From the NCBI RefSeq assembly GCF_003018115.1, contig NZ_CP027457.1: a stretch of DNA of 64,000 nucleotides. One strand, 5' to 3'. Position numbers and translations under genes: made by a program. Below are positions 24,502-57,308 of the stretch, piece by piece. The notes under the pieces are model-generated. The model made no database searches. It worked only from the letters and a program-made list of their open reading frames with translations, and was not told where the DNA came from. Numbering within the stretch: position 1 is the first letter of the stretch; each line of letters begins with the position of its first letter. Source of the DNA: Escherichia coli. GTDB lineage: Bacteria > Pseudomonadota > Gammaproteobacteria > Enterobacterales > Enterobacteriaceae.

Positions 24502-27654
<3,153 letters not shown>

Positions 27655-27671
27655 TACAACGTGTAATCACT

Positions 27672-27697
27672 AAGGCCGCGCAAGCGGCCTTTTTTAT
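27672..27697 (+). terminator. Rho-independent terminator after acrB
   Basis: Hairpin ggccgcg-caa-gcggcc followed by tttttt, 18 nt after the acrB stop. Confidence 0.8.
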
Positions 27698-28199
27698 GCA
27701 TAACCTACGAACATTAAGGAGTAATTGAACCACCAACTCAGGATCTCATACGAAAACCAGTATTAACCACGGATAAAATTCATAAAAAATACTGATTGTT
27801 AGTTAATTTATATTAAGTAGCGCTAATAGATTTAATAATCCATAATCATTTAGAGGCTATTCTTAATTATTTGCGGTAATTCTTTATTCATTCCTCGGTT
27901 ATTACGTCATATTCAGAGCAATCCTGGTATTAGTGTCACCAATTTCATCTGGCGATAATCCTGAAATGTTATGAATAGTTCGAGCAAACTGCTTTTACCT
28001 GCTGCGGGTTAGTGCTAGTATGAAAAAGTGAGTCCTGTCCCGCTTCCTTCCTAATTGTAATTTTTCGTAATAATGCGATGAAAACCTGCAAAGAGTGGCT
28101 TATAGTTAAGCTAACAAACGAGAGGGCAAGTCCAGGTCAGTAAGTTTTTTCCATCCCGAAAGGTGTCCGTTAGTTCAACCGCTAAGAAGGGGACGCGTT

Positions 28200-28574
28200 A
28201 TGGATGAATACTCACCCAAAAGACATGATATCGCACAGCTTAAGTTTCTCTGTGAAACCCTGTATCATGACTGCCTTGCAAACCTTGAAGAAAGCAATCA
28301 TGGCTGGGTAAACGACCCAACCTCGGCGATCAACCTCCAGTTGAATGAACTGATTGAGCATATTGCGACCTTCGCACTTAATTACAAAATTAAGTATAAT
28401 GAAGACAATAAGCTCATTGAGCAGATCGACGAATATCTGGATGACACCTTTATGTTGTTCAGCAGTTATGGTATTAATATGCAGGATCTTCAGAAATGGC
28501 GGAAGTCAGGTAATCGACTATTCCGTTGTTTTGTCAATGCGACGAAAGAGAATCCTGCGAGTTTATCTTGTTAG
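28200..28574 (+). CDS. tomB: Hha toxicity modulator TomB (YbaJ), 124 aa
   Basis: ORF 28200..28574; recognised sequence [31 protein letters not shown]; lies immediately upstream of hha. Confidence 0.94.
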
Positions 28575-28599
28575 AATTATTACAACCATGGGTAGAAGT

Positions 28600-28818
28600 A
28601 TGTCCGAAAAACCTTTAACGAAAACCGATTATTTAATGCGTTTACGTCGTTGCCAGACAATTGACACGCTGGAGCGTGTTATCGAGAAAAATAAATACGA
28701 ATTATCAGATAATGAACTGGCGGTATTTTACTCAGCCGCAGATCACCGCCTCGCCGAATTGACCATGAATAAACTATACGACAAGATCCCTTCCTCAGTA
28801 TGGAAATTTATTCGCTAA
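28600..28818 (+). CDS. hha: Haemolysin expression modulator Hha (72 aa), H-NS co-regulator
   Basis: Internal start of ORF 28354..28818 at ATG 28600, translating [72 protein letters not shown]. Confidence 0.95.
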
Positions 28819-28988
28819 TAAATAATTCGCTTTCGGAGCTATAACCGGCTGTTTATTAAGAATTTTATACTTTTCACCATGAAGACATACCCTATGTGAT
28901 CTTTATCACACAGATGTAATGGGAACGTTCTCTTCACTGACTTTTCGTCTTACTGTGTTGCCGCATTTTCAGCAACCGGAGGTCAGTA

Positions 28989-29540
28989 ATGAGCACAGAA
29001 AAAGAAAAGATGATTGCTGGTGAGTTGTATCGCTCGGCAGATGAGACGTTATCTCGCGATCGCCTGCGCGCTCGTCAGCTTATTCACCGATACAATCATT
29101 CCCTGGCGGAAGAGCACACATTACGCCAGCAAATTCTCGCTGATCTATTCGGTCAGGTGACAGAGGCTTATATTGAGCCAACGTTTCGCTGTGACTATGG
29201 CTATAACATTTTTCTCGGTAATAATTTTTTCGCCAACTTCGATTGCGTGATGCTTGATGTCTGCCCTATTCGCATCGGTGATAACTGTATGTTGGCACCA
29301 GGCGTTCATATCTACACGGCAACACATCCCATCGACCCTGTAGCACGTAATAGCGGTGCTGAACTGGGGAAACCCGTCACCATCGGTAATAACGTCTGGA
29401 TTGGCGGACGCGCGGTCATTAACCCTGGTGTGACCATTGGTGATAACGTCGTGGTAGCCTCAGGTGCAGTTGTCACAAAAGATGTCCCGGACAACGTTGT
29501 CGTGGGCGGTAATCCAGCCAGAATAATTAAAAAATTGTAA
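28989..29540 (+). CDS. maa: Maltose O-acetyltransferase Maa (183 aa), hexapeptide-repeat acyltransferase
   Basis: ORF 28989..29540; left-handed beta-helix hexapeptide repeats ([44 protein letters not shown]). Confidence 0.94.
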
Positions 29541-56849: not shown

Positions 56850-57308
56850 ACTGTGAATATTATTTAGCTGTAGTAATCACCCGGCGTAATTATTACGGCT
56901 AAATAAACATCAGCATCGCTTATTAATATTTGTTCTTTTGTGCGGCTTAGCGTTTGGAAATTATTGGCGCCATTTATAAATTCTATTTTTCTTACACGAT
57001 TCAGCTAATGAGTCTTTATTTTCTCACCACCCAGTTGTCACTCCAATGATAATTATTTGTTAAATAATTGTTTTATTTCGCATTGGTTATACCAATTGCC
57101 CGCCCAGACTCCTTCTGCACTCCCCTTTTGTTATAACGCCCTTTTGCAACAGCTTCTTAAAATCAACCTGATATGTTTTGCAACATATGTGACCTGACAG
57201 CCAAATCCAAGTAACAGGAATTTAATCATGTTTACAGTAATGTAACCTTCCCGTAAAATGCCCACACACTTTAAACGCCACCAGATCCCGTGGAATTGAG
57301 GTCGTTAA

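Follow-up and report, generated by a model that had tools for sequence, protein, structure and literature searches.

Hha acts together with H-NS in the silencing of virulence genes and of genes gained by horizontal transfer, and is itself modulated by TomB. Because of these roles, control of the tomB-hha operon matters for biofilm formation, persistence and the regulation of virulence. The stretch between acrB and tomB in Escherichia coli is a known, ordinary regulatory region, whose promoter and start site have already been published, as have its connections with CpxR and H-NS. Positions given below are those of the window, that is, the whole stretch of DNA that was analysed (64,000 nucleotides). 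By genomic SELEX the hexamer pair ATGAAA/TATAGT has been described as a constitutive sigma-70 promoter, and the tomB-acrB spacer was flagged with an in vitro binding site for H-NS (PMC3946193). Genome-wide mapping revealed only one transcription start site (TSS) for tomB, at 480019 in the older K-12 numbering, which corresponds to window position 28113; the tomB orthologue of K. pneumoniae has the same promoter and a 97-nt leader (PMC3415461 supplement). A ChIP-seq peak of sigma-S RNA polymerase covers positions 28017-28212 (PMC4447067). When fragments of the Salmonella spacer were fused to GFP, expression was driven solely by the tomB-proximal fragment, and two more distal predicted promoters were inactive (PMC5133643). 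In the ymoBA operon of Yersinia pseudotuberculosis, CpxR~P was shown by EMSA to bind a motif equivalent to the one discussed below, lying 56 bp ahead of TSS2, the main start (PMC13353760).

The gene order in the window is acrA-acrB-tomB-hha-maa-ylaC-pdeB, in an orientation that is reverse-complemented relative to K-12 MG1655. The acrB ORF extends from 24505 to 27654 and the tomB ORF from 28200 to 28574, and the length of 545 bp given in the first-pass annotation for the spacer (27655-28199, from the stop codon of acrB ending at 27654 to the tomB ATG at 28200) is exact. The gap between tomB (b0461) and acrB (b0462) of MG1655 is the same 545 bp and carries no annotated features; a single base differs, at 27681 (C here, T in MG1655), within the hairpin loop of the acrB terminator. 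Since the spacer is that of K-12 but for one base, the published K-12 maps are usable here, the K-12 coordinate being 508908 minus the window position in the current numbering and 508132 minus the window position in the older one. Of 5426 complete E. coli genomes, 5423 contain the spacer, the only annotation in it being an occasional IS1.

The AT-richness noted before is borne out by the numbers: the GC content of the spacer is 0.380, versus 0.537 over the final 1 kb of acrB and 0.516 for the 64-kb window. Taken in steps of 200 bp (mean 0.516, sd 0.050), the three lowest GC values of the whole 64 kb (0.29-0.315) all fall in 27701-28000, with a minimum about 4.5 sd under the mean, and the GC content of 0.29-0.32 over these 300 bp is as expected of an AT-rich region bound by H-NS. 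The spacer is also the longest gap separating clear genes in the window, the runner-up being a gap of 460 bp ahead of a cyoA-like ORF, and it is devoid of a convincing ORF, as had been stated: the longest one lying wholly within it has 40 codons' worth of amino acids (40 aa). The GC content of tomB-hha is low as well (0.40), so that the low GC goes on into the operon and delimits an AT-rich unit of approximately 1.3 kb (about 27700-29000). Elsewhere in the window, the AT-richness of the acrB-tomB spacer is equalled only in a long spacer of about 460 bp at 56850-57308, with GC values as low as 0.315 per 200 bp, located upstream of a 315-aa ORF that was taken as cyoA.

With high probability, the spacer holds the 3' terminus of the acrAB transcription unit and, after it, the region from which transcription of the tomB-hha operon is controlled. 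The features on which this reading is based are collected in Table 1.

Table 1. Features of the acrB-tomB spacer and natural IS1 variants (window coordinates).
Feature	Position	Strand	Description
acrB intrinsic terminator	27672-27697	+	AAGGCCGC-GCAA-GCGGCCTT followed by TTTTTT (terminator scan)
Escherichia-specific segment, ~75 bp	27700-27774		unalignable with other genera
Block A, conserved, AT-rich	27792-27839	+	family consensus CTTATTGT...TTTATTT...TATAAT; moderate conservation
Block B, RcsB/RcsAB-like palindrome	27913-27926		E. coli TCAGAGCAATCCTG; family consensus TAAGAATATTCCTA; high conservation
Block C, conserved	27960-27985	+	family consensus GCTAAC..AATGAA..TAAGG; moderate conservation
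Candidate promoter P2	28013-28021	+	extended -10 TGcTAGTAT; -35-like TTTACC at 27994-27999; unproven
CpxR-type box	28057-28071	+	GTAATTTTTCGTAAT, directly 5' of the P1 -35 (pattern search)
tomB-hha core promoter P1	28078-28106	+	-35 ATGAAA (28078-28083), 17-bp spacer, -10 TATAGT (28101-28106)
tomB 5' UTR, 87 nt	28113-28199	+	mapped TSS; conserved CCAUCCC at 28151-28157
IS1, strain FAM21845	28092-28100		separates the -35 from the -10 of P1
IS1, strain C 236-04A	28034-28043		just 5' of the CpxR box
IS1 and 380-bp deletion, strain TUM13773	27763-28142		P1 and start site removed

For comparison across the family, tomB loci were taken from 80 species-level Enterobacteriaceae genomes; acrB is the immediate upstream neighbour in 73 of them, and these 73 spacers were aligned and converted into an information-content profile, from which the footprint of conserved bases was read. 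Spacer length ranges from 435 to 559 bp (median 509), and in the 22 species for which it was computed the GC content is 0.36-0.39 in the spacer and 0.39-0.415 in tomB-hha. Conservation of both length and low GC throughout the family indicates that they are an old property of the spacer-tomB-hha module rather than the mark of a recent acquisition. A search for TomB homologues did not return Yersinia YmoB among the 120 matches listed. In an Erwinia-like contig (locus L085, 1350-1500) the upstream neighbour of tomB-hha is a 117-aa ORF instead of acrB and the spacer measures 143 bp; a CpxR-like sequence, GTAATTTTTAGTAAG, is retained upstream of tomB. Several predicted proteins of 185-205 aa (P0005, P0008, P0010, P0026 and others) combine a TomB domain (PF10757) with an Hha domain (PF05321), and are presumably gene calls made by read-through or frameshift over the 25-bp gap between tomB and hha.

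At its acrB end the spacer begins with an intrinsic terminator, which closes the acrB transcription unit: 18 nt past the stop codon starts a hairpin (27672-27691) with an 8-bp stem containing 6 GC pairs, followed by a run of T (U in the transcript). Stem and T run are kept across the 73 species. The adjoining segment is 3-8% identical to E. coli in the 73-species alignment and is a gap in most genera, which explains the longer spacer of Escherichia. Within this segment, at 27719-27768, TAAGGAG precedes a 13-codon ORF with a TTG start; even E. albertii does not conserve the sequence, which is therefore probably meaningless.

At the other end, the hexamers of P1 match the consensus in 9 of 12 positions (promoter scan), and the published 5' end lies about 7 nt past the -10 hexamer, as expected of a sigma-70 promoter. 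The sequence listed upstream of the mapped TSS, TTTCGTAATAATGCGATGAAAACCTGCAAAGAGTGGCTTATAGTTAAGCTA, is identical to that of the window. The tomB-hha operon is transcribed from a single mapped sigma-70 promoter, P1, with a start at 28113 and a leader of 87 nt. The interval 28053-28108 is nearly invariant across the 73 species, from TAATTGTAATTTTTCGTAATA through the -35 hexamer to TTATAGTTAA. These data support the proposal of the first-pass annotation that the spacer is a regulatory region of tomB-hha, the P1 promoter having been mapped within it. They do not agree with its suggestion of a long regulatory leader: the sole mapped start is 87 nt from the ATG, the K. pneumoniae leader is of similar size, and in Salmonella activity was confined to the tomB-proximal fragment (see above). 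The same annotation had set against its own reading a single promoter close to tomB with neither transcription nor protein binding upstream. The first half of that picture is correct, a single proximal promoter being present and no upstream transcription having been detected, but the second is not, as protein binding has been reported and conserved motifs are present upstream.

In the leader, CCATCCC is more than 90% conserved, and the Shine-Dalgarno/start region is highly conserved too. The two are complementary (CCAUCCC with GGGGA..AUGG), and the RNAalifold consensus of 35 leaders, which has 7 base pairs, pairs them with one another; none of its pairs shows a compensatory change. Given this lack of compensatory change, occlusion of the tomB ribosome-binding site by the CCAUCCC motif is plausible but unproven. 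The single-sequence fold of the leader is ordinary (z = -0.28), and with this value, its 87 nt and 7 pairs free of compensatory change the leader does not have the characteristics of a long structured one such as a riboswitch or attenuator. A local 4-bp hairpin (CAUC/GGUG) was also considered and dropped, being too small, disrupted in Kosakonia-type sequences and passed over by RNAalifold.

Promoters of hha sit inside tomB. An E. coli TSS listed at 479647 (older K-12 numbering) corresponds to window position 28485, and at 28371-28400 there is a promoter-like sequence, TTCGCA-18-TATAAT, the counterpart of what precedes the hha TSS in K. pneumoniae. With these internal promoters hha can be transcribed independently of tomB.

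The CpxR-type box agrees with the tandem GTAAA-N5-GTAAA motif in 8 of 10 specified bases, is positioned upstream of the -35 hexamer as such boxes are expected to be, and is almost invariant in the 73 species. RegulonDB/iModulon lists both tomB and hha as targets of CpxR. By the indirect evidence of orthology with Yersinia and of this database listing, the putative box just 5' of the -35 hexamer ties tomB-hha to the Cpx envelope-stress response. A 12-nt inverted repeat (28016-28027 and 28061-28072, 83% complementary, 33 nt apart) links the -10 region of the candidate promoter P2 with the CpxR box; it may have arisen by chance.

The first-pass annotation had also envisaged an H-NS binding region, and this part of the reading holds in vitro, the genomic SELEX site being located in the spacer (PMC3946193). 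No in vivo H-NS ChIP result for the spacer and no silencing effect of H-NS on tomB were found in the literature searched. PdhR was rejected as a feature of the spacer: the published 'tomB' box, AACGGAATCGACCAGCT, maps inside acrB at 27184-27200, about 450 bp ahead of the acrB stop codon, and matches the consensus in 8 of 14 positions.

Between the Escherichia-specific segment and P1 the family alignment contains three blocks of conserved sequence (Table 1). Block A appears in E. coli as CTGATTGT (27792-27799), TTTATATT (27807-27814) and AATAAT (27834-27839). It may be either a site for a nucleoid protein or transcription factor, or a silent -10-like element; as read from the alignment, its -10-like element has no -35 at a distance of 16-18 bp in most species. 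A Salmonella fragment, p622, that by an estimate of position roughly corresponds to block A was inactive as a GFP fusion (PMC5133643). In block C, E. coli has retained TATGAA (27970-27975) and lost TAAGG.

Block B is a palindrome with four bases that are invariant in all 73 species, GA at positions 4-5 and TC at positions 10-11 of the box. Its family consensus is matched in at least 12 of 14 positions in 50 of the 73 species, versus about 1% of shuffled spacers, and in nearly all of these the spacing between the match and the tomB ATG is conserved, at about 300-327 bp. In Cedecea, which was looked up separately, the block reads TAAGAATATTCTTA and is 338 bp from the ATG. Block B resembles both the RcsAB box, TaAGaatatTCctA, and the RcsB consensus, TN(G/A)GAN4TC(T/C)NA. 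The E. coli copy agrees with the strict consensus in only 9 of 14 positions, and because it fails at the last RcsB position, a strict pattern search finds no box in the spacer. No link of RcsB to tomB, hha or ymoBA was found in the literature searched. The assignment of block B as a putative RcsB-type site should be regarded as a lead, not a finding. That the block is a functional site for RcsB or RcsB with a partner, that Cpx and Rcs converge on tomB-hha, and that the Escherichia copy has partly decayed is a doubtful interpretation, put forward only tentatively. If it were true, both the Cpx and the Rcs envelope-stress systems would directly control the operon of Hha, an H-NS co-repressor, and of TomB, its modulator; block B would act on P1 from afar or else on a condition-specific upstream promoter, P2, and the partial decay in Escherichia would represent lineage-specific rewiring.

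A condition-specific second promoter upstream of P1 is the best surviving alternative, although we consider it unlikely; it could be P2, whose -10 occupies 28016-28021, or the TATAAT-like sequence at 27834-27839. Transcription would then take in part of the spacer, and the leader would be about 170 to 350 nt long, as first proposed; from P2 itself a start at about 28029 and a leader of about 171 nt are predicted. Citrobacter, Salmonella, Raoultella and E. coli all carry an extended -10 of the TGnTAAAAT/TGnTATAAT type, separated by a fixed 41-45 nt from the CpxR box downstream of it; this -10 scores at least 6 in 21 of 72 species versus 9% of control windows. It is missing, however, from the Enterobacter clade and from other Escherichia species, its columns are information-poor in the family-wide alignment, and the E. 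coli sequence matches in only 8 of 12 positions. The two mapped starts of Yersinia ymoBA are 82 nt apart, which is close to the 84 nt between the predicted P2 start and the mapped P1 start (PMC13353760), and the sigma-S polymerase peak (see above) spans both of these E. coli starts (PMC4447067). Against this, a P2 start is absent from the TSS maps of E. coli and K. pneumoniae (PMC3415461 supplement), even though the aligned Klebsiella species have TATAAT at the P2 position. These maps cover few growth conditions, so that condition-specific upstream starts may have escaped them. A search by coordinate in part of the Cappable-seq supplement gave no hits. As for the TATAAT-like element, it is conserved within block A, but the distal Salmonella fragment p622 gave no GFP (PMC5133643). 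Transcription from P1 alone remains the preferred reading.

It is improbable, more so than a second promoter, that the 300 bp upstream of P1 are functionless AT-rich filler kept by mutational bias, all regulation being contained in the 60 bp around P1. Such an explanation would fit the observations that the segment 27700-27774 is not conserved and that much of 27930-28050 is poorly conserved and variable in length. It would also fit the existence of natural variants: IS1 is present in the spacer of three complete E. coli genomes (loci L082, L083 and L084; Table 1), and these isolates survive the insertions and, in one case, the 380-bp deletion, which means that the spacer tolerates disruption in nature. 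Discrete blocks with invariant bases have nevertheless lasted through 73 species amid freely drifting sequence, spacer length is held within the range given above, and the palindrome of block B is retained far more frequently than in shuffled spacers. The IS1 strains offer ready-made tests of what the spacer does.

That the spacer encodes a small RNA or small protein missing from the annotation, as had been suggested, is very improbable and was found to be unsupported on either count. An ATG at 27971, in block C, is conserved in 68 of 73 species and is followed by a loose M-x-x-K pattern, but the ORFs behind it vary from 3 to 46 aa, have no Shine-Dalgarno sequence and are conserved neither in length nor in sequence; the conserved bases show no codon pattern, and a 21-codon ORF at 28078 opens within the -35 hexamer of P1, upstream of the TSS. 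An RcsB-dependent promoter on the minus strand, made up of block B and an ATTCTT motif at a distance of about 38 nt, is conceivable, but the terminator scan showed no minus-strand terminator-like site in the spacer and no second terminator. With permissive thresholds, Rfam gave five weak, sub-threshold matches in 27400-29100, all of them look-alikes located on the acrB terminator hairpin (the Trp and Phe leader matches are this hairpin alone), and no TSS has been mapped for a small RNA or ORF in the upstream spacer (PMC3415461 supplement). The spacer thus has no Rfam family, no TSS and no second terminator that would mark a small RNA gene, and the fold of the tomB leader is ordinary (see above). 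In the part of the ribosome-profiling table of Stringer that was used, whose coordinates are offset by approximately 31 kb from MG1655 as estimated from two landmark genes, no initiation peak is present in the estimated spacer interval on the strand opposite to tomB, which is a weak negative.

Returning to the spacer as a control region of tomB-hha, the following mode of action can be proposed. The roughly 300 bp upstream of P1, which are extremely AT-rich, bind H-NS, as reported in vitro. From this platform H-NS would damp P1, and further factors may act on the same platform, as the conserved blocks and above all the RcsB-like palindrome suggest. In the transcript, pairing of CCAUCCC with the ribosome-binding site may limit translation of tomB.

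In comparison with the literature found, what appears to be new is modest and consists of the conserved upstream blocks only, especially the putative RcsB-like palindrome, all of them recognized by sequence comparison. The value added is a family-wide footprint of constrained upstream bases and a testable hypothesis of an RcsB-type site.

The closest described system is the tomB-hha (ybaJ-hha) promoter of E. coli K-12, which is the same locus with identical -35 and -10 hexamers, TSS and 87-nt leader; the published descriptions of K-12 tomB leave the 350 bp upstream of the promoter undissected. The AT-rich promoters of E. coli that bind H-NS, represented by the 140 sigma-70 SELEX spacers flagged for H-NS, resemble the tomB spacer in their very low GC content, and have in common with it a constitutive sigma-70 promoter with an in vitro H-NS site. 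With the RcsB and RcsAB boxes of rprA, osmC, wza and flhDC, block B shares the form of a 14-bp pseudo-palindrome with an invariant GA-N4-TC. Most species match in 12-14 of 14 positions; the E. coli copy is degenerate. It differs from the usual RcsB site, which adjoins the -35 hexamer, in lying 193 bp (E. coli) to an estimated 220 bp or so (other genera) upstream of the start. The ymoB-ymoA operon of Yersinia pseudotuberculosis is orthologous to tomB-hha, likewise encodes an H-NS co-repressor, and has its CpxR motif just upstream of the main start (PMC13353760). In contrast to E. coli tomB, for which one start has been mapped, ymoBA has two, 188 and 106 nt from the ATG (PMC13353760).
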